The notes beneath the pieces were generated by a model. The model worked only from the letters and a program-made list of their open reading frames with translations. It was not told the DNA's origin and ran no database searches. A program made the position numbers and the translations under genes. DNA of 64,000 nt from an uncultured delta proteobacterium (GTDB lineage Bacteria > Desulfobacterota > Desulfuromonadia > Geobacterales > DSM-12255): NCBI GenBank assembly GCA_963787125.1, contig CAWBBV010000001.1, forward strand, positions 256,001 to 320,000. Direction: 5' to 3'. Below are positions 2 through 17,554 of the stretch, piece after piece (positions within the stretch are counted from its first letter, which is position 1; each line of letters begins with the position of its first letter).

Positions 2-934
2 CTTATAGGTGCCTGTCATATGCACTTTGATCGAGCTCTGATAGGACGCGCCGAAAGAGAACCGGTCAGTTGGCTCCCACATCAAGCCAAGGTTATAGGA
101 AGGAGAAAAGTCATCGCGCATTTTTATCTCTGCCGTGGCAATTCTGTCATAAGGGTTGATTCCGCCGCCGAACCATGGTGGGCGAAAAAACAGCTCCGAA
201 ATGAGCGGAATCTCCATATCCTTGGTCGCATCCCCAAGGACTCTGGTCATACTCACCATGTCGCTGGGGGAGCGCATCTCGAGATTGGCCCCCATGGCTG
301 TCTGCCCGAGTCCGACCGACATCCCGACAGAAAAAGTCTTGTTCACCTGATAACTGACTGCGGGTGCGGCATAGATCAGGTGCTGCTGATAAACACCCTG
401 ACCGCCGAACCGTGCCGGGTCATTATCTTTACCATGAACCAGTCCAACGGCAAACGGCGCGTAATTACCAATGGCGAAAGTCCATTTTGAGCACGGTTCA
501 CGGTGGGAAAGACCAAGCGATGGCGCCACCAGAAAATCAAGCTCGCCCAAAAACGGGATATACATCCGGCCACTGGTATTGGTCCCTTGAGTTCCTGCCA
601 CCGGATCCTTTTTATCTTCCCAGCCGGCAAAACCTTTGAAGTCCGGATCTGCTTCAAATTTGGAGGTCTTCTTGACAATCGGAATGGTGATCCCCTGGCT
701 GAAATAATCGCCATCGCCCAGAAGCGAAAGTCCGGCCGGGTTGTAATGAATCGACATGAGCCCGGGTGGTGAGGCGGTGACGTTGTTGGCTAAAGAGATG
801 GCTCTGGTGTCGATGGCCAACTGCTCGTGGAAAGCTGCCCGGGAGAGTGCCGGCAGGAGAAAAGTCAAGAAGATTGCCACAAAAATCGGGGTAAAGATCG
901 GCAGCACAGACTCTGCCTGCCGATCTGCCGCCAT
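2..934 (-). CDS. OmpP1/FadL-family outer-membrane beta-barrel, FilD-like (partial, runs off the window; absent from the ORF track)
   Basis: Hand translation from ATG at 934 stays open to the window edge: MAADRQAESVLPIFTPIFVAIFLTFLLPALSRA-AFHEQLAIDTRAISLANNVTASPPGLMSIHYNPAGL...FSPSYNLGLMWEPTDRFSFGASYQSSIKVHMTGTYK. It has a signal peptide, the FadL/OmpP1 'NPAGL' hatch motif and amphipathic strands. Confidence 0.85.
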   Translation of the reverse strand, partial: MAADRQAESVLPIFTPIFVAIFLTFLLPALSRAAFHEQLAIDTRAISLANNVTASPPGLMSIHYNPAGLSLLGDGDYFSQGITIPIVKKTSKFEADPDFKGFAGWEDKKDPVAGTQGTNTSGRMYIPFLGELDFLVAPSLGLSHREPCSKWTFAIGNYAPFAVGLVHGKDNDPARFGGQGVYQQHLIYAAPAVSYQVNKTFSVGMSVGLGQTAMGANLEMRSPSDMVSMTRVLGDATKDMEIPLISELFFRPPWFGGGINPYDRIATAEIKMRDDFSPSYNLGLMWEPTDRFSFGASYQSSIKVHMTGTYK

Positions 935-989
935 ACATAAAGGGGGCTTTGGTGAGTGTAAGGCGCTCGACCATAAAATTTTGAGCGCA

Positions 990-2120
990 CTAAAATTCAA
1001 ACGGCACCCTGATGGAGAAGGAGAAGTCCGGATCATTGCTGGTGAGGCCAATGCCGAGTTTGAGTGAAACTGTCCGGTTGGGAGTTACCCGCCAGCCGGT
1101 ACCGATGTAGAAGGTTGATGATAGTGAACTGCCGCTGCTGTAGGATGCAGCGTTACTGAAGCGGTACTCGTTGCTGAAGGCGTAGTTTGCCTGGACGCTC
1201 ATATTGAGCGATGCCTTGTAGGAAAGGGCATAGCCGAACCCCATGGCCAGGCCGATACTGCTGCCAGGCTCAACAGTCGTGAGGTTCCGGCCATCGCGCC
1301 AGTTCTGGTTCAGGTCGCGGGCCGCAAAGTTATAGTTATAGCTTAAATTGCCAAAGGCAATCAGCGGATCCATGGTTTTGCTGAGGGAAACGCCGGCGTT
1401 TACCCCGTAAAAGCCGGAACCGGTGGGAAGAGTTTCTTCAGTGTTAATCTCATAGGGGCTGGTGCCAAACGGCAGGGTCAGCCCGCCACTGAAGATCAGT
1501 GCCGGCATATCGCCACCGGCCTTGATCGGCTGCATCTGCATCCCTACAGAGACATCGCCGAAATCGCTGGCATCCTGAGCCCTGTCAGTCCCGACCCGGT
1601 TGTACTTGTAGGCAAACGGGATGCTGGCGTTGACCGAGAAATTATCCTTCAAGCCATATTCAACATAGAACTGGTTGGTAAGGTTGTGATTACTTCTTTT
1701 CTCCACAATAGCGGTATCTTTAATGACGTCGCCGGAAAAATAGGAATAGTTGAAACCGTACTCAATACTGGTTGATCCTTTCTTTAACAGGGTGTACTCC
1801 CGGCCGGCAGCGGAAAGAATCTCCTCCGCCTTCTTCCCTTTCTCCTCCTCGGACACCTCCAACCGCTTGCGCGCACCAGTCTCTTTGCGCAACTTGTCCA
1901 CCTGAAGTTTCAGCTCTTTCAGCTGCTCTTCTATGCCGATCTTGGCGTCGCCCGGCTTAGCTTCAGCCTCGTCGCCGTCAGTATCCTCTGCCGCAGCTGG
2001 CGGCGCTGCGGGAGCAACCGGCTTGGCAGCTTCAGCCTTCTTCTCCGCGCTATGACATTCAGAAAAAGTTACCGTCAGCAGCAGCAGTAATAAACTTGTC
2101 TTAAATACTAAATTCTTCAC
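990..2120 (-). CDS. Outer-membrane transporter, FilC/FapF-like (N-terminal coiled coil plus beta-barrel)
   Basis: Signal peptide, Ala/Pro linker, heptad segment IEEQLKELKLQVDKLRKE, barrel with GDVSVG and PTGSGFY motifs, terminal Phe (RVPFEF). Adjacent to a C39 peptidase. Confidence 0.8.
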   Translation of the reverse strand: MKNLVFKTSLLLLLLTVTFSECHSAEKKAEAAKPVAPAAPPAAAEDTDGDEAEAKPGDAKIGIEEQLKELKLQVDKLRKETGARKRLEVSEEEKGKKAEEILSAAGREYTLLKKGSTSIEYGFNYSYFSGDVIKDTAIVEKRSNHNLTNQFYVEYGLKDNFSVNASIPFAYKYNRVGTDRAQDASDFGDVSVGMQMQPIKAGGDMPALIFSGGLTLPFGTSPYEINTEETLPTGSGFYGVNAGVSLSKTMDPLIAFGNLSYNYNFAARDLNQNWRDGRNLTTVEPGSSIGLAMGFGYALSYKASLNMSVQANYAFSNEYRFSNAASYSSGSSLSSTFYIGTGWRVTPNRTVSLKLGIGLTSNDPDFSFSIRVPFEF

Positions 2121-2137
2121 CGGTGACTCCTCGCACG

Positions 2138-2884
2138 CTACTTGCCATAGTACTGATACTTGCCAGGGAAATCGTTAATCAGCCGCTCTTCCTTATTGGT
2201 CAGAGCCGGCTGATGATCGAAAATTATCTGCCGCGCCTGGTCTTCATCGATATAACGAAGATCCTCGTCCTTCAGTCTGAGGGCCTTCAGCACGTTGCCA
2301 TCAGCTGCCGGCGAGACCACAAAAATCACGTTCTCGTACCACATCGCCTTGAACTCATCCAGGGTGAAGCTGATATCACCCCGCCACGGATCGGTCAAAA
2401 AAACATGCCCTTTATGAATCCCCTTCAGGACGGCAAAGTGGCGGTAATCAAAGATCTTGATCGGGACGAGACACGGCTTGCCCAGAGTTGTCAGGTCTTC
2501 AATCTCGGCCTTGTAACCGACACCTTCATATCCGAGAGCATTGACGAATTTTTTCATATCAAGGAGCGAGAACGCGCGCAGTTTGTTGATCTGTTCACTA
2601 TCGCCATGTTCCAGCAGCCCCTGGATAACCTGCTTTTCCGTCAGTTTCTCTCCCAGATAAAAATTGAGAAGGGTCGCCAGAGCAGCCGAACCACAGCTGT
2701 AGTCAAACGCCTGCTTGATGAAATGATCCCCCTCGATATCGGAAAAGGGCCGCACATTAACGCGGATTCTCCCCTGCTGACCCGTGCCGACAGTCAGGTT
2801 CATCTCTGCCGGGGGTTGCGGCTTGAGCGGGTGAAACCCGGCAACTAGAGAAATGATTATTACAAAAGCGGCTATGACTACCAT
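2138..2884 (-). CDS. Stand-alone C39-family cysteine peptidase, FilB/FapD-like
   Basis: KQAFDYSCGSAALATLL (catalytic Cys), YRHFAVL (His), VFLTDPWRG (Asp). Hydrophobic N-terminus and no ABC domain. Confidence 0.9.
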   Translation of the reverse strand: MVVIAAFVIIISLVAGFHPLKPQPPAEMNLTVGTGQQGRIRVNVRPFSDIEGDHFIKQAFDYSCGSAALATLLNFYLGEKLTEKQVIQGLLEHGDSEQINKLRAFSLLDMKKFVNALGYEGVGYKAEIEDLTTLGKPCLVPIKIFDYRHFAVLKGIHKGHVFLTDPWRGDISFTLDEFKAMWYENVIFVVSPAADGNVLKALRLKDEDLRYIDEDQARQIIFDHQPALTNKEERLINDFPGKYQYYGK

Positions 2885-2908: not shown

Positions 2909-3916
2909 TTAGTGGCCGGCGAGCCTGATCCAGCCGTTGACGCCGAGCATCAAATGAGAGACGGCGAGTGAGCCGCAAGTGCCGCCACCGGTCAACTGTT
3001 TGTTGTCGGCGATCTTTACATCAGCGTTAAACGAAGTCATCGAGACCCCCAGTGCGCCTTTAGCAAAAGTACTGCTGTCGTTTGTGTTTATCGTGTTGTT
3101 GCGGGAATCGTCGCTGCCAAGACCGATATGCACGTAAGAGACACCTGGACCGAATACTGAAAAGGGGACGGACTGCAGAGTGGTTGCGTCGGAAGCATTT
3201 GTAGCCACATTAATGGTAAGAGGGCCGACTATTTTGAGCGTTGTGATGCTCAATCCGGAGAGACCAAAGTAACCGGCCAGGTCACTCACTCCGTCTTTGT
3301 TTCCTTTTGAGTTGCCCCAGGAGAGAGCATCCAGTTTCAACGACTCGATATTAAGGTCTAAATCCGTGCCTATCCCTGAAGCTTTACTATCTTTTACGGT
3401 AAGGATGTCCACCCTGCTGGCTTTGTTGAAGAGCAACTTCAACCCACCCAGATAAACTGACCCCAGGTTCTGTTCGAGCCGCTTTGAACTGCCGAGTCCC
3501 ACATCAAACTGCAGCTGCTCCATATCTATCGCCAGAGAGCCCATGGAGATCCGCACATAGGTTGTGCCTTCGCCATGGCCGCTTGCATTGGCAGCCCCTT
3601 CAGTGACCACATCAATGGCCATTTTAGTTATTTCCTGGGTCAGCGGATCTTTTGCCGAATAGATTTTTGTATTTTTAGCCGAGAAATTTTTCAGCCCTAC
3701 CCAGCCTTCCGTTGTGCCGCTACCAACCCCCAAACCATCATCATCGCGCCAGTAGGCGGTTTCCAGGGTGATGTCAAAGGTCAAATCCACATCTATCGAC
3801 ATCCCGGCCTGGCCGGTAACCTTGTGTAGGCCGTTATCAGGGATGATATTTTTCGCAAATACTGAAAAAGGTATCAGTAAAATAACAGTGGCTATGGAAA
3901 ATGTTTTTTTCATCAT
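2909..3916 (-). CDS. DUF6160/FilA-like secreted beta-rich protein (paralogue of 6831-8309)
   Basis: Signal peptide, then IPDNGLHKVTGQAGMSIDVD. Shares TTYVRIxxGSL, LSWGN, SYVHIGLG and C-terminal GVNGWIRLAGH blocks with the 492-aa paralogue. Confidence 0.75.
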   Translation of the reverse strand: MMKKTFSIATVILLIPFSVFAKNIIPDNGLHKVTGQAGMSIDVDLTFDITLETAYWRDDDGLGVGSGTTEGWVGLKNFSAKNTKIYSAKDPLTQEITKMAIDVVTEGAANASGHGEGTTYVRISMGSLAIDMEQLQFDVGLGSSKRLEQNLGSVYLGGLKLLFNKASRVDILTVKDSKASGIGTDLDLNIESLKLDALSWGNSKGNKDGVSDLAGYFGLSGLSITTLKIVGPLTINVATNASDATTLQSVPFSVFGPGVSYVHIGLGSDDSRNNTINTNDSSTFAKGALGVSMTSFNADVKIADNKQLTGGGTCGSLAVSHLMLGVNGWIRLAGH

Positions 3917-3950: not shown

Positions 3951-5567
3951 TCACTCCTTCAGCTCAACGTCATAGCGGACAAAACCGTTCCCTTCAGCAC
4001 TGATCGCCAGAGTGTGCAGATGGGTGGCATCATCAAAAACAAGACTGGAACCTTTGACAACCGATACCAGCCGCTTGGTCATCTCTTTGCCGTCAACGAC
4101 TACCACCCACTGGCCACCGGCTAAGGCAACATAGGCAAAATGGTGTGAATCGGGAGAGAACGCCGGTGCAGCAACACCGTCGAATACCGGACCTTCCTTG
4201 CCGTTAATAACCACCCGCCACTTGCCGTCTTTTTGTGCCATGTAGGCTAAAGATTTAAAATCAGGGCTGTAGCGCGGTGGAGTCAGTGCATCGTAAAACG
4301 CCCCCTCTACACCGTCCGTGACTACCAGCCATTTGCCGTTTTTTTGCGCCGAGTATGTCAGGTGAGCCGAATCCATGGTAAACTGCGGAGTGGTCACCAT
4401 GTCGTAATTAACTCCATCCTTGCCGTCCAATACCACCAACCATTTCCCCTGCTTTTGGGCTGCGTAGGCCAGGTGTGCCGAGTCCATGCTGTAGATGGGA
4501 ATAGTAACAACGTCATAGCGTGCCCCTTCCTTGCCATCACTTACCATGAAACCCTTGTCGCCCAGTTTCGCTGAATAGGTCGTATGTTTCGAATCAGGGC
4601 TGTAGGAAAGGATGCCTACCTGGTCGTAAAGCGGGCCTTCTTTGCCATCCATAACCATCAGGTTTTTCGAGTCTTTAACAGCCAGGAAGGCGACATGATT
4701 GGAGTCAAGGCTGAAAGACGGAATAGCCACGTCATCGTAAAGCGCACTCTCTTTGCCATCAATAACCATTAGTGACTTGCCGCCTTTCTTGGCGGCATAA
4801 GCAAAATGCTGTGAATCAAGGCTGAAATTGCAGACACCGACGTTGTCATAGACTGGCTGCTCCTTGTCGTTTTCAACAAAAAACATTTTTCCTGCCTGCT
4901 TGACGCCATAGACGAGCCGCACAGAGTCCAGGCTGTAAACCGGCGCAGATATTGCGTCATAGGTTTTACCCTTTTTACCATCCACCACCAGCGCCATCTT
5001 TTTGTTGATTACAGCGACATACACCAGGTGCTTTGAATCGGGGCTGAACATCGGTGTTGACTGATCCTGGATAATCCCGTCATAAGATTTCCCTTTTTTG
5101 TTGTCCACTACCACAGAGCGTTTTTCACCCTTTTTGACCACATAGGCCAGGCGCTTTGAGTCCGGACTGAACAGCGGCGTAGAAACACCATCGAAGCCGT
5201 TACCATCTGCACCGTCAAGGCTTACCCGCCACTGATCACCTTTTTTTGAGCTATGGACAACATGCTTGCCATCGGGACTGAACAGCGGCGTCCCCTTACC
5301 GACGGCTTCAAGAGTCGGCGACACTTTCCCCTCGGTTATGACAACAACACCTTTTTCATTACGTGCCATGAAGGCGACCCGGCTCGAGTTCTGGTTGACT
5401 TGCAGGGACGGGATAAACATGTCCCACTCCTCGGAAAAAGGAATCAGTGGCGTGATCTTTTCGGCAAAGGTTTTTGCCTCCTTGGCACAAGCTAAAGAGC
5501 CCATAAACACCAACGCCGTTAAAGCAGTTACTATGAAAATGAAATGGCATTTATTTCTCGTTCTCAT
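3951..5567 (-). CDS. Secreted PD40/TolB-like beta-propeller repeat protein
   Basis: Signal peptide, then about 12 tandem ~37-aa repeats of the form FSPDSxHLAYxAxKxGKWxVVxDGKEGxxYDxVxxP. Confidence 0.85.
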   Translation of the reverse strand: MRTRNKCHFIFIVTALTALVFMGSLACAKEAKTFAEKITPLIPFSEEWDMFIPSLQVNQNSSRVAFMARNEKGVVVITEGKVSPTLEAVGKGTPLFSPDGKHVVHSSKKGDQWRVSLDGADGNGFDGVSTPLFSPDSKRLAYVVKKGEKRSVVVDNKKGKSYDGIIQDQSTPMFSPDSKHLVYVAVINKKMALVVDGKKGKTYDAISAPVYSLDSVRLVYGVKQAGKMFFVENDKEQPVYDNVGVCNFSLDSQHFAYAAKKGGKSLMVIDGKESALYDDVAIPSFSLDSNHVAFLAVKDSKNLMVMDGKEGPLYDQVGILSYSPDSKHTTYSAKLGDKGFMVSDGKEGARYDVVTIPIYSMDSAHLAYAAQKQGKWLVVLDGKDGVNYDMVTTPQFTMDSAHLTYSAQKNGKWLVVTDGVEGAFYDALTPPRYSPDFKSLAYMAQKDGKWRVVINGKEGPVFDGVAAPAFSPDSHHFAYVALAGGQWVVVVDGKEMTKRLVSVVKGSSLVFDDATHLHTLAISAEGNGFVRYDVELKE

Positions 5568-5840: not shown

Positions 5841-6689
5841 TTATGGCGTCAGGCGCAACTGGAGGCGATGAACATTGATGCCGTCAATGGCCATGGGGCC
5901 AAAACTCGTCGGACCGAAGGCTACATTCTCTACTCTTAGTGAGCCTTGCATCGGCAGGTTTATATATGTTGACGTCACATCGTTCAGTTCGGCGCCAACT
6001 ACAATTGAGGCAGGGTTCGGTTTGTCCGCCGGGTGTTCGCCGATGTGGAAGTTGCCGGTCATTGCCCAACTGGCCGGATCTTCCGGAGCGCCGCTGGCGC
6101 TGCCAAAGAGATGAACGCCACTTAGTGCCAGCGAGTTGGAGCTGTTATAGGCATATTTTAAAACGCCGATGTCCAGGCGCGTCGTGTAGTCAAATTCAAT
6201 TCCTGAACCAGCAATTGGTGCTGAGATTCGCAGGGTGGAAGGGCCTTCGGTCATCGGGCCGATATGGAGGCTGCCCAGCGACTGATCGGCAAATTTAAGC
6301 TCGCTGACGTTATAGTGACGGGGGTAGGTCTTGCTGGAGTCGACGATTGTCAGGGAAGTTCTGCCGGCGGCATCAGTGCTGACATCATAGGTGATTGGAC
6401 TGCTGGTAATAAAGCCATCAGATGTTTTCATGGAAAAAGGGTTGCCGGCGCCATCGTCAATTGTCACGCCGTTGAATTCGAGCCATTTTTTAGTGGGACT
6501 AGTGTCTGCAATTCTGAAACTGTCCATGGCTACCTGGACGGCAAGATCCATATCAATGCTGATTCCGGCCCGACCGGTAACAGTCGAGAGTTCGGTGTCG
6601 GCCAGGGTGCTCATGGCTGCCTCAATGTCGTTCGAAGCAACGAGACAGACGGCGACTATGATCGAGGCGACTGCACCAATACGTTTCAT
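5841..6689 (-). CDS. DUF6160/FilA-like secreted protein
   Basis: Signal peptide, then MSTLADTELSTVTGRAGISIDMD. Beta-rich G/S/T composition. Confidence 0.75.
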   Translation of the reverse strand: MKRIGAVASIIVAVCLVASNDIEAAMSTLADTELSTVTGRAGISIDMDLAVQVAMDSFRIADTSPTKKWLEFNGVTIDDGAGNPFSMKTSDGFITSSPITYDVSTDAAGRTSLTIVDSSKTYPRHYNVSELKFADQSLGSLHIGPMTEGPSTLRISAPIAGSGIEFDYTTRLDIGVLKYAYNSSNSLALSGVHLFGSASGAPEDPASWAMTGNFHIGEHPADKPNPASIVVGAELNDVTSTYINLPMQGSLRVENVAFGPTSFGPMAIDGINVHRLQLRLTP

Positions 6690-6830: not shown

Positions 6831-8309
6831 TTAGTGGGCACCAATGTTAACCCAGCCGTTAATACCAACTTTCAGATTGGACATCGACATTGTGCCGTAA
6901 GTACCGGCTGAGTTCGTGTCACCCAAATAAGCGCTTTTGCCAAGCAGGTCTTTGTTGTTGGAAACAGCTATGTCAGCATACATCGAACCGATACCGAAAA
7001 CGAATCCACCAGGGCCGACCAGCGCCGAACCGGACTCGGATTTGCCGGTACCGATACCGATATGAACGAAGCTAGGGCCGACTGCGGTAGCAACTGAATT
7101 GTAGAGTGAGTAGTAGTAATTTGACAGGGCTGTTTCAGTAGCAGCCTTGGCAGGATTACCGAGATATGCACCAGCGGCGGCAGCATAAGTAGCTGCGTCT
7201 GCATCAGAAATTGCTTTAGCTGCGACATACGCAGGATCTAAAACGTTGCCACCTGCAGTGAATAGTGCATTATTTGTTGCCAGCAATGAAGCAGCGTAAG
7301 TTGCGCCTTTAGTCGAAGCATCAGCTGCAAAAGGGGCGATAGTAGCCATATTGGTGGTAAAAGCTGTCGCCGCGGTAGCTACTCCTAAAGCGCTGGTGTT
7401 TACTGTTCCGACCTGGATGGAGATCGGGCCGACCATGGTCATGTCCGTGATGGCCAGATTTTTATAGCCGACATAACCTGCTGTGGTAGTAGCCGCTGCG
7501 CTTGCTGCCGATCCGGACGGACCGGTTACTGTCCCGGCCTTATTGCCCCATGACATTGATGCGGCATTAAGCTTGTCAATCTTTACATCAAGATCAAAAA
7601 CTACGCCGGAACCAGCTGCGTTAACTGCTTTCTGGCTGAGCGAATAGATATCAACTTTGCTGTTACCGTTCACTTGAACATTAAGCCCGCCAATATGGAC
7701 ATCGCCCAGCTCCTGGGAAAGATTTGCCAGAGTTGGGGCGGCTTTACCGGCTGACTGACCAAGAGCAACGGTAAAGTCGATATTTTTTGCAGCGATTTCC
7801 AGAGAGCCGAGGCCGATACGGACGTAGGTAGTACCGGCTGCTTTATTGTCTACAGCTGCTGCGGCAGTTGCAACGTCAATGGTCAGCGGATGCACAGCCA
7901 GCTTATAAGTAGGGAGCAGAGCGGCTTGAGCTGCTAAATCTGCGACGGTGTATTTACCTTTTGATGCGACTACAAAGGCCATTGCAGCAGCTGGTTTGTC
8001 TGCAACAGCGGCGTCTACATACGCTTGTGCCAGGGTTGCGAGGACGACGTCAGCCAGCATTTCCGGGCGAAGTCTGACGGTCATGTTGTCGATGGTGAAG
8101 TTTTTCATGCCGATCCAGTTTGTGTTGGCACCGTCATAATTTCCCCAGGCCATGGTGTCGGCAGTAACATCAACACGCACGTCCATGTCGATGGAGACGC
8201 CGGACTGGCCGGTTACTTTGCCCATCTCACTGTCGGAGATGGTTGACTTGGCGTATGCTGCAAACGGGATCATGGTTGCCATTGCGGCGATTGCTAATAC
8301 TTTTTTCAT
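6831..8309 (-). CDS. DUF6160/FilA-like protein, probable major subunit, with two Ala-rich insertions
   Basis: Signal peptide ending AYA, then KSTISDSEMGKVTGQSGVSIDMD. Strong RBS (AAGGAG), its own terminator, C-terminal GINGWVNIGAH. Confidence 0.8.
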   Translation of the reverse strand: MKKVLAIAAMATMIPFAAYAKSTISDSEMGKVTGQSGVSIDMDVRVDVTADTMAWGNYDGANTNWIGMKNFTIDNMTVRLRPEMLADVVLATLAQAYVDAAVADKPAAAMAFVVASKGKYTVADLAAQAALLPTYKLAVHPLTIDVATAAAAVDNKAAGTTYVRIGLGSLEIAAKNIDFTVALGQSAGKAAPTLANLSQELGDVHIGGLNVQVNGNSKVDIYSLSQKAVNAAGSGVVFDLDVKIDKLNAASMSWGNKAGTVTGPSGSAASAAATTTAGYVGYKNLAITDMTMVGPISIQVGTVNTSALGVATAATAFTTNMATIAPFAADASTKGATYAASLLATNNALFTAGGNVLDPAYVAAKAISDADAATYAAAAGAYLGNPAKAATETALSNYYYSLYNSVATAVGPSFVHIGIGTGKSESGSALVGPGGFVFGIGSMYADIAVSNNKDLLGKSAYLGDTNSAGTYGTMSMSNLKVGINGWVNIGAH

Positions 8310-9456: not shown

Positions 9457-9566
9457 ACTGGTAAAACCTTGTTTGCTAAGGCCTCTGTTTTGTGTACCAG
9501 ATTCCATTTCTGGGTACCAGATTTTGAAATTTTGTTTTTTTTGTGTACCAGATTTTATTTTTGGGT
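9457..9566. promoter_or_regulatory. Repeated FadR/GntR-like operator elements
   Basis: TG(T/G)GTACCAGATT at 9491, 9511 and 9542, plus ACTGGTAAAACC at 9457, all just upstream of the FadR-like gene. Confidence 0.55.
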
Positions 9567-9648
9567 CGAAACAACGGAAGTTTTAAGCGGAGAACAGCAA
9601 CAATCCGGATATTGGGCTTTCCGGATTAGCCTTTCGCGGAGGGAGCAG

Positions 9649-10359: not shown

Positions 10360-11726
10360 AAACCTTCTTAACAGCTGCCATAACTTTATTGCTCGTTACG
10401 CTTGCCATCTCTGCCCCGGTTTTGGCCGCATACGAGCCTGGGAGCATAACACTGCTGCCGACCGCCGGCTTCTCCAGTTTTGATAAAAGTTCCAAACTGA
10501 AAAACAGCCCGACCGTCAACCTGAAAGCAGATTACGGCCTCTCAAAACTGGATATTGGCAATCTCGGCATCGAAGGGGCAATCAGCGGCGGCAAGATTCG
10601 GTCAACAGACGGAGAGCAGAACGCCGATACCTATCTCTTCAGAGTCGGCCCGTTCCTATCCCTGGAATCTTTTGAGGGGATCACGCCGATTTTGGCCGCC
10701 GGTTTCGGCCTGTTTACTACCAGGCAAACGATAAATTCCGTTACCGGAACAAACCCCTACATCTCCTTCAGCGCGGGCGCCAGTTATCAGCTTGCCAAGA
10801 GCATCATGCTCAGAGGCGATGTCAGCCGCTTGATGTCGCTGGACACCAATGCTATCAAGGGGCTATCTTTTACCGTCAGCCTTGGTTATAGCTTTGACAC
10901 CCCGCCGCCGGTCTTTGTCCCTGTCCACCCGGAAAACTGCGCTGACAAAGCGGCTGCCGCAGCAGTGGCTAAACAGGCAAAGGCGCCTGCAGCAGTACCG
11001 GTAGAACTGCTGCAGGCGCCGCAGGCGGGTACGGTTGAGGTTACTTCAGCGGCCCGCGATAATAAAACTGAAGAATCCATAGAAACACCTGTTGCTGCAC
11101 CTGTTGCTGCACCTGTTGCTGCACCTGTTGCTGCACCTGTTGCTGCACCTGTTGCTGCACCTGTTGCTGCACCTGTTGCTGCACCTGTTGCTGCACCTGT
11201 TGCTGCACCTGTTGCTGCTCCTGTTGCTGCTCCTGTTGCTGCTCCTGTTGCTGCTCCTGTTGCTGCTCCTGTTGCTGCTCCTGCTCTACCTCTACCTCTA
11301 CCTTTATCCGCAGTCACGGCACCGCCGCCTTCATACCCGGCGGCTCCTGTTCCCCCCGTTATTATCAGCGGCTTTGCCTTCAACTCATACGACCTGCCTC
11401 CGGGCAGTTTCAAGAAGCTCAAAAAGGTAGGCAAGTTGGCACGCCGCTACCCCGGCATCACCATCCTGATTGATGCTGTGCCTGTGAGCAAAGTGCCAAA
11501 GCCGAAAACCAACCGGCGCTTTGCTGTGCTGCGGCTGCAGACAGTCAAAAATTACCTGGTGAAATATGAGCAGATCGCTCCGGAAAGGATTATCAGTACC
11601 GGTGAGGACATCTCCGTGTTGCAACCTGTTAACAGGGGCGATCCGCGCAGTGAGGATACCCGGCGGACCGTAGTGATCAGGTTTGCGCAGGAACAGCCGC
11701 CGGTGAGCACTGAGGAGGACGAATGA
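10356..11726 (+). CDS. OmpA-like protein: OM beta-barrel, Pro/Ala linker and degenerate OmpA C-terminal domain
   Basis: Signal peptide, amphipathic strands ending VSLGYSF, (PVAA)16 linker, then FAFNSYDL...VKNYLV...IAPERIISTG...RRTVVI. Confidence 0.75.
   Translation: MKTFLTAAITLLLVTLAISAPVLAAYEPGSITLLPTAGFSSFDKSSKLKNSPTVNLKADYGLSKLDIGNLGIEGAISGGKIRSTDGEQNADTYLFRVGPFLSLESFEGITPILAAGFGLFTTRQTINSVTGTNPYISFSAGASYQLAKSIMLRGDVSRLMSLDTNAIKGLSFTVSLGYSFDTPPPVFVPVHPENCADKAAAAAVAKQAKAPAAVPVELLQAPQAGTVEVTSAARDNKTEESIETPVAAPVAAPVAAPVAAPVAAPVAAPVAAPVAAPVAAPVAAPVAAPVAAPVAAPVAAPVAAPVAAPALPLPLPLSAVTAPPPSYPAAPVPPVIISGFAFNSYDLPPGSFKKLKKVGKLARRYPGITILIDAVPVSKVPKPKTNRRFAVLRLQTVKNYLVKYEQIAPERIISTGEDISVLQPVNRGDPRSEDTRRTVVIRFAQEQPPVSTEEDE
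11088..11279 (+). repeat. Coding 12-bp tandem repeat (VNTR), 16 units
   Basis: 10 x CCTGTTGCTGCA followed by 6 x CCTGTTGCTGCT. A short (CTACCT)3 run follows a few bases downstream. Confidence 0.97.
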
Positions 11727-12226
11727 AATTTCTCAGCAGACTCGATCGCTGGTTTGAAGTTGGTGAAGGGTGCGCCCTGATCATCATCCTTTTTGCCATG
11801 ATCTGCATCGCCTTTTTACAGGTGCTGCTGCGCAACTTCTTTCACACTGCTCTCCCCTGGGGTGATGGCCTCACCCGCGCCCTGGTGCTCTGGGCTGGCT
11901 TTGTCGGTGCTTCACTGGCTGTGCGTCAGGGACGCTTCCTCAGTATCGACGTGCTGAGCCGACGCCTCGGGGCGGCCTGGCAGCGGCGCACCAGGCTGCT
12001 GATCTACCTGTATGCAGCGCTCGTCAGCTTTTTCCTCGGCTGGGGCGGGGTTACCTTTGTCCGTAGCGAGCTGGCCGCCATGACCATGACCTCTATCGGC
12101 CTGCCGAACTGGATCATTACCAGCATTATCCCGGCGACGTTTTTCCTGCTCTGCTTCCGTTTTTCCATGAAAACCGCTGCCCTGCTCCTGGGGGGGGAAC
12201 TGGAGAAACATGAATGGGAACGCTGA
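11723..12226 (+). CDS. dctQ: TRAP transporter small permease
   Basis: Four TM segments with QVLLRNFF...LPWGD.LTR.LVLW.GFVGASLA motif. Confidence 0.9.
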   Translation: MKFLSRLDRWFEVGEGCALIIILFAMICIAFLQVLLRNFFHTALPWGDGLTRALVLWAGFVGASLAVRQGRFLSIDVLSRRLGAAWQRRTRLLIYLYAALVSFFLGWGGVTFVRSELAAMTMTSIGLPNWIITSIIPATFFLLCFRFSMKTAALLLGGELEKHEWER

Positions 12227-12229
12227 TCG
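12179..12229 (+). repeat. Degenerate 51-bp direct repeat, copy 1 (dctQ end/dctM start junction)
   Basis: 44/51 identical to 13860-13910 by manual alignment. Confidence 0.85.
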
Positions 12230-12299
12230 CCCTTTATTCAGAGCGTCTGTCAGTTCGGATAAACAAATTCCTATCTTTTCAATAAAGGAGTTCAACATC

Positions 12300-13100
12300 A
12301 TGAAACTTTTTACCAAAGGCTCTATCACTGTTTTTATTTCTGTACTGCTTAGTCTTGCATTTGCTCCCTTGTCCTATGCTGACTTTATTTTGAACGTCTG
12401 CTGTTCGTCGCAGGTATCCGAAGCTTTCGGCCGCGAAAGCCTTGAATCTTTCATGGCAGAAAACGGAATTCAGGTGAAAATCCATACATCGAACACTGAA
12501 GTCTGCCTCGATCGACTGAAAAACAGTTTTTCCAATCTGGCTGGTTCCGCGGTGCGAATTAGTCAGGCGGATAGAGAGGCCGGGCTGATTGAAATCCCCA
12601 TAGGTTCAGATGCCTTTTCAGTAATTACAAATGCCGGCAATAAAGTGAAAAACCTGTCTTTACAGCAACTTCGTGAAATTTTCAGGGCAAAGATAACCAA
12701 CTGGAAAGATGTGGGCGGTGATGACCAGCCCATTATCCTGATTATTCCTGCGAAAACAACCGATGCGTATAAAAACTTCCAACAACTGGTCATGGGACCA
12801 AATGAAATGCAGCATGACCTGATTGCCAGCATGGCAGTTACCGCTGTTACCAGCGTTAAATTCATCCCGGGTTCCATTTCCTTTATCACCAACAGTATTG
12901 CCCTTAAGCATAAGGAAGTTACTGTTCTCAGCCTTGACGGGCTCCATTCGGCGGATACCGGCTATCCTTATCATCAGACCTTCTCCATGATTCTCAAGGG
13001 GGAGCCCGACCCCATAATGAAGGGAGTTATTAATTATCTGCTGTCGGATAAGGCAAGGAAGCGGATGACGCTTCGCGGCATGAAACCCATTATTAACTAA
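12300..13100 (+). CDS. PstS/PBP2-like periplasmic substrate-binding protein
   Basis: AAGGAG RBS and ATG at 12300, signal peptide, motif LSLQQLREIFRAKITNWKDVGGDDQPI typical of PstS-like proteins. Confidence 0.8.
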   Translation: MKLFTKGSITVFISVLLSLAFAPLSYADFILNVCCSSQVSEAFGRESLESFMAENGIQVKIHTSNTEVCLDRLKNSFSNLAGSAVRISQADREAGLIEIPIGSDAFSVITNAGNKVKNLSLQQLREIFRAKITNWKDVGGDDQPIILIIPAKTTDAYKNFQQLVMGPNEMQHDLIASMAVTAVTSVKFIPGSISFITNSIALKHKEVTVLSLDGLHSADTGYPYHQTFSMILKGEPDPIMKGVINYLLSDKARKRMTLRGMKPIIN

Positions 13101-13123: not shown

Positions 13124-13738
13124 GTGACTTTGAGAAATCTATCGATCTTCATACTCTGTTGTACGTCTCTTTTTTCAAGCGGCTGCGCCACAGTTGTCAC
13201 AAACTATTTCCCCATTAAGATTACGGAAACCAAACAGGGGGAGAAAGTCATTGATACGCGGGTGGGGTACAACTATTCCCTGAAGGAGACAAAAGACTCT
13301 CTTGTTCTGCTCCGGCAACCACTTTGCAGCCAGAAAATCAAACTTATAACAATGGAAAAGAACATGGTGCATGGCGATGTTTTTGCGCTGCTGGAAATTC
13401 CTATTCTGGGACTTGGGTTTCTTGATATGTCCATGGCAGAAGCTGCCTCCAAGGCAACAGAGAAAGAAAGCGACGGTGGAACTATCAAAAGCAGCGAAAT
13501 TATCGCCTGCGGCACTATAGACCCGGGAGCGAATATTGAATTGATCCTGGGATTCCCCGAAAGTATTTCCTTAAGTCGTGTCAAGACAGATGACCAGGGG
13601 AAAATTCCTTTTTCAGCCATCAATAATCTTTCCAAAAAGGATTCCCAATATATCGTTTTCGTCAAAGAGAAAGATGGGGTTTCTTATGTCCAAACCGTTG
13701 AGCGAAAAGATATCACCTCGATTCTCAATCAAAGATGA
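13124..13738 (+). CDS. Hypothetical lipoprotein
   Basis: GAGG RBS, GTG start, lipobox-like FSSGC. Confidence 0.65.
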   Translation: MTLRNLSIFILCCTSLFSSGCATVVTNYFPIKITETKQGEKVIDTRVGYNYSLKETKDSLVLLRQPLCSQKIKLITMEKNMVHGDVFALLEIPILGLGFLDMSMAEAASKATEKESDGGTIKSSEIIACGTIDPGANIELILGFPESISLSRVKTDDQGKIPFSAINNLSKKDSQYIVFVKEKDGVSYVQTVERKDITSILNQR

Positions 13739-13859
13739 CTCAAGGCGGCGAGGCGACGAAGGCTTCATAACTTGAAGGAAGATCGAACTTGGGAAATTGA
13801 GCGAACCTATGAAGTATTTACACACACTCGACAGGTGGAGAGCTGCTACTAAAGAGTGC

Positions 13860-13910
13860 GCCCTGCTGTTCGGGTGGCAACTGGAGAAACACGCATGGGA
13901 ACGCTGATCG
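13860..13910 (+). repeat. Degenerate 51-bp direct repeat, copy 2
   Basis: Encodes a relic ALLFGWQLEKHAWER* (dctQ ends ALLLGGELEKHEWER*) overlapping the dctM ATG. Confidence 0.85.
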
Positions 13911-15169
13911 GTCTATTCATAGTTGTTCTGGCGCTCCTGGGGGCACCGCTGTTCACCATTTTTGGCGGGGCCGGACTCTGGCTGTTCCATGATGCCGGCA
14001 TCGATATTTCCGCGGTTATTGTGGAGATGCACCGCATCACCACCCTGCCGATGCTGGTTGCCATCCCGCTCTTCATCTTTGCCGGCTACCTGCTGGCCGA
14101 AAGCAAAGCGCCCCAGCGGATCGTCAGATTCTCCCGGGCCCTGGTCGGCTGGCTCCCCGGCGGCCTGGCCATTGCGGCGCTGCTGGTCTCGGCCTTTTTC
14201 ACCGCCTTTACCGGCGCTTCCGGGGTGACGATCATTGCCGTCGGCGGCCTGCTGCTACCGGTGCTCATCGCCGAAGGCTACTCAGAGAAGTTCAGTATCG
14301 GCCTCCTCACCACCTCGGGGAGTATCGGCCTTCTCTTCCCCCCCAGTCTGCCGATCATCATCTATGGACTGGTGGCCAATACCAGCATCGACAAACTCTT
14401 CATTGCCGGCCTCCTCCCAGGCGTTTTCACTATCCTCCTTTTGGCTGGCTACTGCATTTACACCGCCTGGAGCAAAGGGATCGAGCGTACCCCCTTCTCG
14501 GCAAGCGAGCTTTGGGGGGCTACCAGGGAGTTTGCCTGGGAGTTACCGCTGCCGGTCGTTGTCATCGGCGGCATCTACAGCGGCATCATCACCGCCACGG
14601 AAGCCGCGGCAATCACCGCCTTCTACGCCTTTGTCGTCGAAGTCTTCATTCACCGCGACTTGAGCCTGCGCCGGGACATCCCCCGGGTCATGCGGGACAG
14701 CATGATCATGGACGGCGGTATTATCGTTATCCTCGGTACCGTGCTCGGCTTTACCAACTACGTAGTTGACGCCCAGCTGCCGTCCCAGCTCCTGGAGATG
14801 GTGCGCGGTTTTATGACCGACCGCATCGTGTTCCTGCTCCTTTTGAATCTGCTGCTCCTCATCGGCGGCTGCCTCCTGGATATGCTCTCGGCCATCATGC
14901 TGGTGCCGCTCCTCCTCCCCATTGCCGCCGAATTCGGAATTGAGCCGGTGCACCTGGGGATCATCTATCTGGCTAATCTGGAGATCGGCTACTCGACGCC
15001 GCCAGCCGGGCTTAACCTCTTTATTGCCAGCTTTCGCTTCAAAAAACCGATCGTCGCCCTGTACGGTTCAGCACTCCCTTTTCTCGCCTTCTACCTGGTC
15101 GCCCTGATTGTCATCACCTACTGGCCGGCGCTCAGCCTCATTCTGCTGCACATCTACGGGGGACCATAG
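13895..15169 (+). CDS. dctM: TRAP transporter large permease
   Basis: LVAIPLFIFAG, SGSIGLLFPPSLPIIIYG, TATEAAA and TPPAGLNLF motifs. Start at the ATG of MGTLIG. Confidence 0.93.
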   Translation: MGTLIGLFIVVLALLGAPLFTIFGGAGLWLFHDAGIDISAVIVEMHRITTLPMLVAIPLFIFAGYLLAESKAPQRIVRFSRALVGWLPGGLAIAALLVSAFFTAFTGASGVTIIAVGGLLLPVLIAEGYSEKFSIGLLTTSGSIGLLFPPSLPIIIYGLVANTSIDKLFIAGLLPGVFTILLLAGYCIYTAWSKGIERTPFSASELWGATREFAWELPLPVVVIGGIYSGIITATEAAAITAFYAFVVEVFIHRDLSLRRDIPRVMRDSMIMDGGIIVILGTVLGFTNYVVDAQLPSQLLEMVRGFMTDRIVFLLLLNLLLLIGGCLLDMLSAIMLVPLLLPIAAEFGIEPVHLGIIYLANLEIGYSTPPAGLNLFIASFRFKKPIVALYGSALPFLAFYLVALIVITYWPALSLILLHIYGGP

Positions 15170-15170: not shown

Positions 15171-16052
15171 GTGAAGTTTTTCACCGGGCAGTGGCAGATT
15201 GCCATTCTCTGCATCCTGAGTATAAGCGGTTGCTCCCTGAACCGCCTGGCTGCCGACAAGGCCGCCGGACTGATGATTGAAGCCGGCCGCACCTTTAATG
15301 AAGAGTCCGATCTCCAACTGGCCCAAGAGACCATCCCCCCAAATCTGAAGCTCCTGGAAGGGCTGCTCAAACTGACTCCGGACAATGCGTCGCTGCTGAC
15401 TACCCTGGCTCAAGGGTGGTGCTCCTACAGCTACGGCTTTCTGGAGGAGTCTGCCACACCGGGTGACCGGGAACGAGCCTCGGCGTTCCATCTGCGCGGC
15501 TATGAATTCGCTCTCAGGGCACTGCCGGAGGCGGTGCGCACCAGTATCAGACGTGGGGATCAGGCTGAGCTTGAGGCGGCCATTGCCACTGTCGGCAAAG
15601 AAGATATCGCCCCGCTTTTCTGGTCAGCCTACTGTCTCGGCAACTGGGTCAACCTCAATCTGGCCGAGGTGGCCGGCGTGGCTGAACTCTCCAGAGCGGA
15701 GCTGCTGATGCGCCGGGCAGCGGCCCTTGACGACACCTTTTTCTATGGCGCCCCCCACATCTTTTACGGCTTTTACTACGGCGCCCGGCCGAAGCTTTTT
15801 GGCGGCGATCCCGCCAAAGCAAAAGAGCATCTCCTCAAAAGCATGGCCATCAGCGAAAACCGCTTTCTCCCGGCCAAGCTCTTTTTGGCCCAGGTTTATG
15901 CCGTTGCTGTCCAGGATGAGCAGCTCTTTGACGACACGCTCAAGGAGATCATCGCCGCCCCTGCCGACCTCTTCCCCCGGGAGCGGCTTGCCAACGAAAT
16001 TGCCCGTAAACGGGCAGAACAGCTACTTAAACGGAAAGCGGAGCTATTTTAA
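15171..16052 (+). CDS. tatT: TRAP-associated TatT (TPAT) lipoprotein
   Basis: Lipobox ISGC, EESDLQLAQETIPPNLKLLEGLL, RPKLFGGDPAKAKEH and TPR-like helices. Lies between dctM and dctP. Confidence 0.85.
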   Translation: MKFFTGQWQIAILCILSISGCSLNRLAADKAAGLMIEAGRTFNEESDLQLAQETIPPNLKLLEGLLKLTPDNASLLTTLAQGWCSYSYGFLEESATPGDRERASAFHLRGYEFALRALPEAVRTSIRRGDQAELEAAIATVGKEDIAPLFWSAYCLGNWVNLNLAEVAGVAELSRAELLMRRAAALDDTFFYGAPHIFYGFYYGARPKLFGGDPAKAKEHLLKSMAISENRFLPAKLFLAQVYAVAVQDEQLFDDTLKEIIAAPADLFPRERLANEIARKRAEQLLKRKAELF

Positions 16053-17077
16053 TGAATCAGCTGATTAAAAGCGTAACAATCCTCTTCACCACGCTGCTGC
16101 TTGCAACAGCAGCCGTCGCCGCGCCTGTCACCATCAAATTTGCCACCGTCGCCCCGGAGGGCTCCTCCTGGATGAACATCATGAAGGAGGCCGCGGCTGA
16201 CCTCAAAAAAACGACGGACGGGCGGGTTATTTTCAAGCTTTACGCCGGTGGAGTGGCCGGCGATGAGCCGGATGTCATCAAAAAAATCCGCATCGGCCAG
16301 TATCAAGGGGGGGGCTTTACCGGGGTCGGCCTGGGGGAGATCCTCCCTGAATCGCGGATTGTGGAGCTCCCGTTTCTGTTCCGCAATCTGCAGGAGTTCG
16401 ACCATGTCCAGAAAAAGCTGACTCCGCACTTCGAAGAGCGTTTCCGCGCCAAAGGCTACGAGTTTATCGCCTGGGCAGAGCCTGGGCTTGTTTACCTGAT
16501 GAGTCAGAAACCGATTCGCTCCGCCGCCGATCTCCAGGGGGTAAAAATGTGGGTCTGGGAAGGTGATCCCCTGGCTGACGCCCTTTTGAAGGCTTACAAG
16601 GTCGCCCCGGTGCCGATTGCCCTTCCCGATGTCCTCATGTCGCTCCAGACCGGCATGATCAATACAGTTTACGCCCCGCCGCTGGCAGCACTGGCGGTCC
16701 AGTGGCACACCCGGATCAAGTACCTGCTGGATGATCCCATCACCAACAGCACCGGTGCCGTTCTGGTCAGTAAAGCGGCCTGGGAGAAAATCGCCCCGGC
16801 CGATCAGAAAACCGCCAAAGAGGTGCTGCGCAAGCATTTTGCCAAACTCACCGCCGTTACCAGAAAGCAGAATCAGGAATCGATCGCCAAGTTCAAGCAG
16901 TTGGGGATAACCGTCCTCAAGGCCGACCCGAAGAGTCACGAAGAGATGGCGTCAATAGCTGTCGGCATCAGGAGTAGACTGGTGGGAAAACTCTATCCTG
17001 CCGAGCTGCTCAAAGAAGTGGAAGGGTATCTGGCTGAGCTGCGCAGCAGTGGAACAAAAGTAAAGGCCGGCAAGTAG
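16052..17077 (+). CDS. dctP: TRAP substrate-binding protein (TatP_T-type DctP)
   Basis: IKFATVAPEGSSW, YAGGVAGDE and LQTGMINTV motifs. Confidence 0.9.
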   Translation: MNQLIKSVTILFTTLLLATAAVAAPVTIKFATVAPEGSSWMNIMKEAAADLKKTTDGRVIFKLYAGGVAGDEPDVIKKIRIGQYQGGGFTGVGLGEILPESRIVELPFLFRNLQEFDHVQKKLTPHFEERFRAKGYEFIAWAEPGLVYLMSQKPIRSAADLQGVKMWVWEGDPLADALLKAYKVAPVPIALPDVLMSLQTGMINTVYAPPLAALAVQWHTRIKYLLDDPITNSTGAVLVSKAAWEKIAPADQKTAKEVLRKHFAKLTAVTRKQNQESIAKFKQLGITVLKADPKSHEEMASIAVGIRSRLVGKLYPAELLKEVEGYLAELRSSGTKVKAGK

Positions 17078-17101
17078 GACAATTCCCATAAGGAGAATCC
17101 C

Positions 17102-17554
17102 ATGAAAACCGTAATCATCGCCCTGGTAACATGTTTCACCCTGACTGCAGCAACAATCTGCTTTGCCGCACAGGACAGCCTGCTCGGGGTCTGGACAACC
17201 GAAGAGGCCAAATCAAAGGTAGAGATTTTTAACTGCGAGAAGAAGATCTGCGCCAAAATCATCTCTCTCAAGGAGCCGCTCTACGTCGATGCGAAGGACG
17301 GCCCGGTCGGCACGGCCAAGACCGACCGGAACAACGCTGACAGCGCCCGCCAGAAGACTCCGATCATCGGCCTGCAGATCATGGCCGGTTTCACCCCTAA
17401 TGGAGAGAGCAGCTGGGGCAACGGCACCATCTACGATCCGGAAAACGGCAAGACCTACCAGTGCAAGCTCAAGCTGGACGGCCCGAATCGCCTCAATGTC
17501 CGCGGCTTCATCGGCATCTCCCTCCTGGGGCGCACCACAGTCTGGACGCGGTAA
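17102..17554 (+). CDS. DUF2147 family secreted protein
   Basis: GVWTT, WGNGTIYDPENGKTY and LNVRGFIGISLLGRTTVWTR motifs. Confidence 0.9.
   Translation: MKTVIIALVTCFTLTAATICFAAQDSLLGVWTTEEAKSKVEIFNCEKKICAKIISLKEPLYVDAKDGPVGTAKTDRNNADSARQKTPIIGLQIMAGFTPNGESSWGNGTIYDPENGKTYQCKLKLDGPNRLNVRGFIGISLLGRTTVWTR

Follow-up and report, generated by a model that had tools for sequence, protein, structure and literature searches.

The window analysed here, a 64,000-nt stretch of DNA from an uncultured delta proteobacterium of the Geobacterales that lives in soil or sediment, begins with two divergent operons. The minus strand carries genes of a Fil-type pilus system, and the plus strand carries a gene for a FadR-like regulator followed by those of a TatT-associated tripartite ATP-independent periplasmic (TRAP) importer (TPAT). 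The features of the locus are listed below (aa, amino acids; GC, fraction of G and C).

2..1051, minus strand: FilD-like outer-membrane barrel of the OmpP1/FadL/TodX type, N-terminal 350 aa; the gene continues beyond the left window edge
990..2120, minus strand: FilC, FapF-like secretion barrel (NF050079, NF058560, PF13557)
2138..2884, minus strand: FilB, C39 cysteine peptidase (PF03412, 58.1 bits)
2909..3916, minus strand: DUF6160 subunit, 335 aa (PF19657, 32.1 bits; NF050077 FilA, E 1.3e-6)
3951..5567, minus strand: TolB-like PD40 beta-propeller, 538 aa, with signal peptide (PF07676, TIGR02800)
5841..6689, minus strand: DUF6160 subunit, 282 aa (PF19657, 54.5 bits)
6831..8309, minus strand: DUF6160 subunit, 492 aa, rich in Ala, Gly and Thr, without Cys (PF19657, 37.5 bits)
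8536..9186, minus strand: secreted 216-aa protein with a variant DUF6160 N-terminal motif, first gene of the Fil arm
9187..9648, no strand: shared divergent control region, 462 bp, GC 0.329
9212..9276, no strand: two non-coding blocks (9212-9237 and 9260-9276) kept with the contig L086, from pairwise alignment
9491..9554, plus strand: three direct TGKGTACCAGATT repeats, candidate operators of the FadR-like protein
9649..10359, plus strand: FadR-like regulator of the GntR family, 236 aa, first gene of the plus operon (PF07840, PF00392)
10356..11726, plus strand: 8-stranded outer-membrane barrel with repeat linker and weak OmpA-like domain (PF13505, PF00691)
11723..12226, plus strand: DctQ, small TRAP membrane subunit (PF04290, 90.5 bits)
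12210..13100, plus strand: inserted PstS-like periplasmic binding protein, PBP_like_2 (PF12849, 87.1 bits)
13124..13738, plus strand: inserted 204-aa lipoprotein with lipobox-like FSSGC; no Pfam or NCBIfam match
13856..15169, plus strand: DctM, large TRAP membrane subunit (PF06808, 272 bits)
15171..16052, plus strand: TatT, tetratricopeptide repeat-like T component, predicted lipoprotein (LSISGC; PF16811, 237.2 bits)
16052..17077, plus strand: DctP-type binding protein of the TatT-linked kind (PF03480, 134.6 bits)
17102..17554, plus strand: DUF2147, secreted lipocalin-like beta-barrel (PF09917, 126.8 bits)

The open reading frame (ORF) listing together with Pfam and NCBIfam scans places every gene named in the first-pass annotation at the position claimed, and the divergent arrangement that it described is confirmed. 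Its AT-rich common origin of about 450 bp measures 462 bp, with the GC of 0.329 to be set against 0.508 for the genome. Its list of plus-arm genes was incomplete, the PstS-like and lipoprotein ORFs between dctQ and dctM having been overlooked, and the label 'ompA' suits the weak OmpA domain at the C-terminus of a gene that is chiefly an 8-stranded barrel with a repeat linker.

The whole layout is repeated, at 51-77% protein identity, on L086, a 102,420-bp metagenome contig whose synteny was read from the DNA. Its minus strand encodes FilB, the propeller, two DUF6160 proteins and a homologue of the 216-aa protein. Its plus strand encodes the FadR-like regulator, a 199-aa barrel, DctQ, DctM, TatT, DctP, a GMC oxidoreductase, DUF2147 and an aldehyde:ferredoxin oxidoreductase. 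L086 has no counterpart of the PBP-lipoprotein pair or of the 335-aa subunit. The two oxidoreductases are inserted around DUF2147 (12002-16078 of L086) and give a hint of alcohol or aldehyde substrates.

The plus arm reads as one operon headed by the regulator, because start and stop codons overlap at the fadR/barrel, barrel/dctQ and tatT/dctP junctions and dctM and tatT abut. With TatT (PF16811) encoded beside DctP, DctQ and DctM, the importer is a member of the TPAT group. Its order, dctQ-(insert)-dctM-tatT-dctP, is not the usual tatT-dctP-dctQ-dctM; this is a variant gene order and no ground for exclusion from the group. TatT carries the LSISGC lipobox, its Cys21 is invariant in all 15 aligned sequences, and the lipobox rule predicts a lipoprotein. 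Its best relative in the PDB is 8G52 (E 1.8e-23), followed by Tp0956 (E 9e-11). The 8G52 structure is Es_TatT with palmitate bound, and both TatT proteins tested, Es_TatT and Tp0956, bind long-chain fatty acids, according to the available parts of the report, which also puts TatT in about 2% of TRAP systems (PMC11713862). The hydrophobic ligand that the first-pass annotation assumed for TatT systems, and that an earlier model also proposed (PMC5812351), agrees well with this fatty-acid binding.

The binding protein fits the importer reading as well. At the column where four solved canonical DctP proteins (4XFE, 4P47, 4X04 and 4NG7) have Arg within a K-I-R motif, Trp is found in 55 of the 55 TatT-linked DctP proteins collected, and the window DctP is of this type. 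The canonical Arg clamps the carboxylate of the ligand. Tp0957 matches the profile of TatT-linked DctP proteins at E 5e-32. For the DUF2147 protein at the end of the operon, the model (predicted local distance difference test, pLDDT, 88.6) has a Foldseek match to 4INN, the lipocalin HP1028 of H. pylori (E 1.5e-8, TM-score 0.69-0.71), and a PDB sequence search returned a spurious match only.

The outer-membrane barrel scores 50.3 bits for PF13505 and 22.8 bits, under the cut-off, for PF00691, the two parts being joined by about 20 tandem 4-residue Ala/Pro/Val repeats (~11090-11345). The DNA of these repeats gives short matches in several contigs of related genomes. The small-barrel gene is kept between fadR-like and dctQ in L086, as a barrel only, and in another locus, L126, a porin gene precedes dctQ, so that the plus operon seemingly has an outer-membrane part of its own. 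The insert between dctQ and dctM has a GC of 0.444 and no counterpart in L086. Its PstS-like protein matches PstS proteins of the PDB at E ~1e-14 and probably starts at the Met of MKLF..., some 90 nt into the ORF. Parts of the insert (12143-12568 and 12934-13165) are covered by sediment contigs with about 95% identity to the window, and contigs from four sediment runs give short, low-depth pieces of both arms, which carry no information on expression; no RNA run was listed as containing the locus. In the sterol system BstB/BstC, too, a phosphonate-type binding protein goes together with a relative of TatT, as described in the accessible text of PMC10942540; the Pfam family of BstB differs from that of the inserted PstS-like protein.

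On the minus strand, the complete FilD ORF, which runs past the window edge in the wider locus L057 (15171-17051), encodes 626 aa and scores 160.2 bits for PF03349 over model positions 25-398 of 421; by the cut-off of this family, and over most of its model, FilD belongs to FadL/OmpP1/TodX. The part inside the window gives 74.9 bits for PF03349, E 4.3e-53 for NF050080 and E 1e-8 for PDB 3DWO, and the true start probably lies a little inside 1051. FilC matches NF050079 (E 1.3e-63), the FapF model NF058560 (E 2.1e-25) and the FapF structures 5O65 and 5O67 (E 3e-16), and its N-terminus has a charged stretch resembling a coiled coil. FilB matches NF050078 (E 8.7e-57) and FapD (E 2.6e-31). Its N-terminal hydrophobic segment suggests that it is probably periplasmic like FapD, and its sequence has SCGSAA and HFAVL stretches, which we take to hold the catalytic Cys and His. 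NCBIfam classes its Fil models as 'exception' and gives them high cut-offs, and because the window proteins score far under them (FilB 192.6 against 475, FilC 215.6 against 630, partial FilD 180.4 against 970), they are distant homologues. The FapF and FapD matches likewise fall far below their equivalog cut-offs of 700 and 330.

Three of the secreted proteins are DUF6160 (FilA-like) subunits, with PF19657 scores of 54.5, 37.5 and 32.1 bits at a cut-off of 27. A motif, D-x-E-L-x-x-V-T-G-Q-(A/S)-G-(I/V)-S-I, follows directly on the signal peptide in 10 of the 12 DUF6160 proteins that come from Fil loci; it resembles a double-glycine leader, and FilB would be expected from the sequences to cut next to G-(I/V)-S-I. 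The 335-aa subunit has KVTGQAGMSID at its N-terminus and GWIRLAGH at its C-terminus, and the 492-aa subunit is 46% identical to its L086 counterpart. The 216-aa protein has the motif variant NDAELSAVVAQG, as does its homologue in L086. No Pfam or NCBIfam family matches it, and its atlas neighbours include a cluster with 46% DUF6160 members, which is a lead only; its homologues are 62% identical in L086, 41% in L031 and L033 and 25-28% in L028 and L029. The PD40 propeller is conserved at 65% identity in L003 and L086 and at 39% in L031 and L033.

The 282-aa subunit finds only 166 representatives at E <= 0.001 in a set of 1.84 billion clusters, and its model (pLDDT 91.8) is all-beta with G-I-S-I-D in the first strand. 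The profile of its family matches PDB 9XFV over the whole chain at E 1.7e-5, and the model aligns with that structure at a VIA-align Z of 4.1, with a root-mean-square deviation of 2.3 Å over 91 residues. The sample behind 9XFV came from cave water, and the structure is that of a helical 'pilus-like' filament (PMC12956863, in its available passages). Its chain begins with GVSIA, directly after the motif, and ends in ...FWMWAH, where the window subunits have ...GWVNIGAH and ...GWIRLAGH. The 'filament' that the first-pass annotation had read into the minus arm is backed by this match of profile and structure. Foldseek found nothing at E <= 0.001 for the DUF6160 model, and the top VIA-align rows for it (Z 6-8) were set aside as generic curved beta-sheets from barrels. 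The Fil or DUF6160 class of pili is named in annotation, and none of the papers searched describes how such pili are assembled. In the Smithella-type loci L007 and L013 the FilC-FilD pair is preceded by a calcineurin-like phosphoesterase gene, and neither locus has a FilB or DUF6160 gene within the ~12 kb scanned around the pair, so that these two barrels may also work without a pilus.

The control region between the arms has three direct copies of TGKGTACCAGATT, starting at 9491, 9511 and 9542 with start-to-start spacings of 20 and 31 nt. Three matches were reached in none of 100 shuffles, and the genome (4.2 Mb) holds exactly these three. They lie 95-160 bp upstream of the fadR-like gene, which has its ATG in frame at 9649, preceded by a GGAGGG motif, and some 300 bp away from the first Fil gene. 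The copies contain an ACCAGAT-like half-site, which they presumably have in common with the E. coli FadR operator, and they are candidate operators of the FadR-like protein. In L086, TCTGTACC... and ...GACCAGATT stand 21 bp apart about 60 bp upstream of the fadR-like start, which reads as a two-site remnant at the equivalent place. As the repeats occur only here, the FadR-like protein looks like a local regulator. Shorter matches (9-mer and 11-mer) exist elsewhere in the genome, and 8 of the 9 examined fall within long ORFs. One 11-mer identical to the repeat core is carried by a 504-aa ORF present on two contigs (C4:153122-154636 and C5:25522-27036), which marks this ORF as a repeated, possibly mobile gene.

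On the Fil side of the control region two non-coding blocks are kept with L086, identical by hand count at 21 of 24 and 15 of 17 bases. The 9-mer GTACCAGAT, with one mismatch allowed, shows no enrichment in the window and no extra site in the intergenic gaps of the Fil arm. A scan of 8250-9700 for sigma-70 promoters and terminators gave no excess over shuffles, and the sigma-54 consensus gave no signal (34 matches with 37 expected).

The regulator itself combines a GntR winged helix-turn-helix domain (PF00392, 47.2 bits) with PF07840 (131.1 bits). It matches E. coli FadR, 1HW1, at E 3e-30 in a phmmer alignment that ends at E. coli residue 206, and it keeps R35, R45 and R49, which we take to be DNA contacts. 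Relatives of the regulator are found near lipid genes; in L070 these neighbours are FadE- and FadB-like. A 44%-identical second copy of the FadR-like gene (C3:27674-28354, in L077) is present in the genome itself, in an operon with genes for a FAD-linked oxidase, glycerol-3-phosphate dehydrogenase and glycerol kinase. A single-protein search with the FadR-like sequence for related loci in the genome contig collection found no relative.

Further cases in which the arms occur together were sought through the cluster tables listing the nearest database relatives of FilC, the FadR-like protein and TatT, where the same bp size of the longest contig in two or three tables was taken as one contig; such tables can miss genes. 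The matching contigs and their identities to the window proteins are as follows, the first line being L086.

102420-bp contig: FilC 77%, FadR-like 51%, TatT 64%
19619-bp contig: FilC 63%, FadR-like 54%, TatT 60%
49327-bp contig: FilC 70%, no FadR-like entry, TatT 62%
8698-bp contig: no FilC entry, FadR-like 78%, TatT 77%
14718-bp contig: FilC 60%, FadR-like 62%, no TatT entry
64515-bp contig (Geomonas sp. Red276): FilC 66%, FadR-like 50%, no TatT entry

These sizes suggest three to five more contigs with a pairing besides L086. In Geomonas sp. Red276 the locus tags of FilC (GMSM_34090) and the FadR-like protein (GMSM_34030) are six genes apart, which connects the regulator with the pilus arm too. 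In the tree of FadR-like proteins, all 6 sequences with a known Fil or TatT link lie in three basal lineages of one clade (support 100/99), 19 sequences from loci verified to be without both arms form a nested clade, and the second copy of the genome falls outside. Taken together, these comparisons indicate that the linkage of the arms is real, old enough to have outlasted the gain and loss of several genes, and limited to a small group. The order dctQ-dctM-tatT-dctP is found in L086 and in L087, L089, L090 and L126, and tatT-dctP-dctQ-dctM in the other metagenome loci that show all four genes. The next TatT clade (47-52% identity; L087-L090 and L126) has the former order wherever all four genes are visible, and its five loci have no FadR-like, small-barrel or Fil homologue. 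The TPAT operon of L087 is flanked (4382-7092 and 13843-15585) by genes for a phospholipase-D-like protein, an EEP phosphatase and a glycerol-3-phosphate dehydrogenase, a phospholipid-breakdown setting.

Beyond this small group the two arms are found apart. None of 40 relatives has TatT. In a class sample of 400 genomes, PF16811 occurs in 57, and in none of the 200 among them that come from the window's own order. FilC-like proteins (E <= 1e-10) are encoded in 26 of the 400, with only G192 near the 216 bits of the window protein itself, and matches to both TatT and FilC are present in a single genome, G324, on different contigs. FilD adjoins FilC in 31 of 34 FilC loci on genome contigs, the other three stopping at a contig edge, and FilB was detected in 9. 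Not one of the 34 has any plus-arm gene (TatT, DctP, DctQ, DctM or FadR-like), even at E <= 1e-3; FilD thus looks like a part of the pilus system. The class-sample genomes provide 20 TatT loci, all with the order tatT-dctP-dctQ-dctM and none with a FadR-like, barrel, DUF2147 or close Fil gene; a 22%-identical FadL-like match lies 4 kb from one of them. No close FadR-like, barrel or Fil gene accompanies the 53 other metagenome TatT loci. Two loci of another TPAT clade, L120 and L121, have a distant GntR/FadR-like gene (22% identity, ~15700-16345) 2 kb downstream of dctM. A survey of the order as a whole, with 238 other genomes, found FilC in two, both without TatT and without a close FadR-like gene; one of them, G192, is 96% complete and has FilC as well as FilD. 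Among the named relatives of FilC, the main sources are Smithella, Syntrophaceae, a hydrocarbon metagenome and Desulfosudis oleivorans. Smithella, Syntrophaceae and Desulfosudis oleivorans are fatty-acid or alkane degraders.

The genomic setting is that of a variable region. In 7 congeneric genomes, window positions 1-17600 have short repeat-like DNA matches and none of full length, and in 1-20000 the full-length matches are rhlE (17663-18937) and, in one genome, 19234-20000. To the left of the window the gene for a sigma-54 response regulator alone has a full-length match, in 4 of the 7. The locus thus appears to lie in an accessory, possibly mobile region. GC is 0.508 for the genome, 0.514 for the Fil arm, 0.57-0.60 for the TPAT genes and 0.619 for the core gene rhlE; its use to separate the arms from the host was rejected, as rhlE exceeds both arms. 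The DNA left of FilD (L057 8371-15174; C1:248371-255174) encodes an LCM-type carboxyl methyltransferase, a GGDEF cyclase, a lipase-like alpha/beta hydrolase (Hydrolase_4), an unknown 262-aa protein, an SCP2-domain protein and a radical-SAM-like protein. It also has a further DUF6160 gene (183 aa) beside the sigma-54 response regulator, and a PDB sequence search with that DUF6160 protein gave nothing.

The reading that we favour, with middling confidence, is that two separate machines stand back to back, one a TPAT importer of long-chain fatty acids under FadR control, the other a Fil pilus resembling Fap. On the importer side, the 8-stranded barrel would admit a long-chain fatty acid or similar amphiphilic lipid into or through the outer membrane. 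TatT, anchored in the outer membrane, would take up the lipid and pass it to the Trp-type DctP, and DctQM would move it over the inner membrane, while the lipocalin-like DUF2147 may buffer or shuttle the ligand in the periplasm. The FadR-like protein would bind the TGKGTACCAGATT repeats upstream of its own gene and repress the operon, itself included, until acyl-CoA made from the imported fatty acid released it. On the pilus side, the four subunits would be exported by Sec, FilB would trim a short propeptide in the periplasm, and FilC together with the FadL-like FilD would export the subunits, which could then form a helical filament of the 9XFV kind outside. Both operons probably serve one way of life, in which attachment to lipid-rich or hydrophobic material goes with the uptake of fatty acids, and they may share a lipid-foraging programme.

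Several observations weigh against this reading. The FadR-like protein scores below both NCBIfam equivalog cut-offs for FadR (NF003444, 152.6 against 189; TIGR02812, 148.4 against 249.2) and differs from E. coli FadR at T46, T47, H65 and G66, which we also take to be DNA contacts. The E. coli FadR operator is palindromic, and the TGKGTACCAGATT repeats are direct copies rather than a palindrome. The role of the outer-membrane barrel is guessed from its position alone, PF13505 being a broad family. DUF2147 occurs in 19 of 150 class-sample genomes, all of them without TatT; being common in such relatives, it could stand here by chance. In structure, the resemblance to 9XFV is modest (Z 4.1, best Foldseek E 0.06). 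The linkage of the arms has been verified on DNA in one case, L086, and the pairing in few relatives could reflect shared descent of one mobile block instead of selection.

The last point leads to the view that the two operons are unrelated neighbours, inherited or transferred as one variable block, with the FadR-like protein controlling the TPAT operon alone. This is unlikely without being far-fetched. It would account for the near-complete separation of the arms outside the small clade (the one genome in 400 that has both, on different contigs), for G192, for the accessory character of the region and for the position of the repeats on the fadR side only. It sits poorly with a layout kept at 51-77% identity despite at least four gene gains or losses within the arms, namely the 335-aa subunit, the PBP-lipoprotein pair, the OmpA tail and the GMC and aldehyde:ferredoxin oxidoreductase genes. 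It also leaves aside the non-coding blocks conserved beside the Fil start and the co-occurrence of the FadR-like protein and FilC on two further contigs, that of Geomonas sp. Red276 included, that are without evidence of TatT. The same co-occurrence invites a different thought, that the FadR-like protein is mainly a pilus regulator responding to a lipid signal, with the TPAT importer as a sensory input that supplies the precursor of the effector. Besides the window, the regulator and FilC are found on one contig in as many as five cases (102420, 19619, 14718, 64515 and possibly 8698 with 9877), and TatT joins them in three or four; the Fil- or TatT-linked regulators are basal in their clade, and a GGDEF protein is encoded just downstream of FilD. 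We nevertheless hold this to be very improbable: translation of the regulator gene is coupled to that of the importer operon in both loci verified, the candidate operators are some 300 bp from the Fil start, and the absence of TatT from two of the contigs comes from cluster tables alone.

The remaining alternatives join the arms more closely. The first-pass annotation had staked its model on the arms being conserved together in relatives, and given L086 they are, with the matching contigs suggesting more; as a general rule co-conservation fails, since the broad FilC and TatT surveys show the arms apart. That model was a single conduit, in which lipid or hydrocarbon is caught by the filament, enters through FilD as outer-membrane pore and is delivered by TatT and DctP to DctQM, with both arms under the control of the FadR-like protein in response to acyl-CoA. 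Its attractions are the co-location of the arms in L086 and probably in three to five more contigs, the true FadL-family membership of FilD, the long-chain fatty acids bound by TatT proteins (PMC11713862, available parts), the lipid-related SCP2-domain and Hydrolase_4 genes that flank the Fil arm, and the lipid- or alkane-degrading company of FilC. The distribution of FilD speaks against it: FilD follows FilC in 31 of 34 loci, with no TatT, DctP, DctQ, DctM or FadR-like gene in any, and no close FilD accompanies the 20 genome or 53 other metagenome TatT loci. The plus arm already has a conserved outer-membrane barrel of its own, and the nearest characterised relative of FilC exports protein and is no lipid importer. 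Single control by FadR fares no better, as the repeats are on the fadR side, with no similar site in the Fil-proximal control region or in the intergenic gaps of the Fil arm, and as the two systems occur separately outside one small clade. Nothing positive speaks for the single conduit, and we consider the model quite improbable. A looser form, one lipid-foraging apparatus under an acyl-CoA switch, in which the DUF6160 pilus would tether the cell to particles of lipid or hydrocarbon or itself bind lipid, the fatty acid would enter by FilD or by the small barrel and be imported through TatT, DctP and DctQM, and the FadR-like protein would tune both operons to the supply, is still distinctly unlikely. 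If true, it would provide the first assigned function for the Fil class of pili and the first regulator tied to a TPAT system.

The favoured reading of two machines has consequences of its own. A FadR-like gene in a TatT-TRAP operon provides independent genomic support for fatty-acid import by TatT and offers a regulator and operator that can be tested. The link of DUF6160 to 9XFV, together with the FapD/FapF-like pair and the FadL-like barrel, leads to a concrete model of assembly with a predicted cleavage site. That the two operons are found together again in a few iron-reducing relatives raises the possibility that attachment and lipid uptake are coordinated.

Comparison with known systems places each arm in a recognised class and shows where it departs from it. 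The importer resembles the TatT/TatP(T)/TatQM system of Treponema pallidum and the TatT system of Enhygromyxa salina (3U64, 4DI3, 8G52), where a lipoprotein TatT is likewise encoded with DctP, DctQ and DctM; it differs from them in its order, Q-(insert)-M-T-P, and in having Q and M as separate genes. Compared with the surveyed TPAT loci, the window operon adds the FadR-like regulator, the outer-membrane barrel and DUF2147. E. coli FadR controls fadL and fadD. The window protein shares with it the GntR winged helix-turn-helix and FadR_C domains and a context of fatty-acid-uptake genes, while its scores below the equivalog cut-offs, the direct repeats, their restriction to this locus and the second paralogue in the genome set it apart.

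The pilus arm recalls the Pseudomonas Fap system, which likewise groups the genes for a C39 peptidase and for a FapF-like barrel, charged in its N-terminal region, with those of the secreted substrates. In the available passages of PMC5557850, FapD is a periplasmic protease needed for secretion and FapF a trimeric secretion barrel. The substrates in the window are DUF6160 proteins instead, the four subunits having no match to any Fap subunit family in Pfam or NCBIfam (FapB, FapC, FapE); the FadL-like barrel and the TolB-like propeller are extra, and FapA and FapE are missing. The Acinetobacter Fil locus, a 'putative pilus system' in NCBIfam, supplies the best NCBIfam names, FilA to FilD, for four window genes and has FilB, FilC and FilD in that order. 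The window genes are distant from it, with more numerous and larger subunits and no recognised FilE or FilF, the latter having been named as a rare pilus type, 'type III pili' (PMC3203104). With the pilus-like-alpha filament 9XFV, finally, the window subunits share the G-V-S-I start and a C-terminal end like W-x-x-A-H; the solved chain has 173 residues and the window precursors 216-492 aa. That fibre is called an unnamed 'bacterial pilus', with no mention of its genes, in the accessible passages of PMC12956863.

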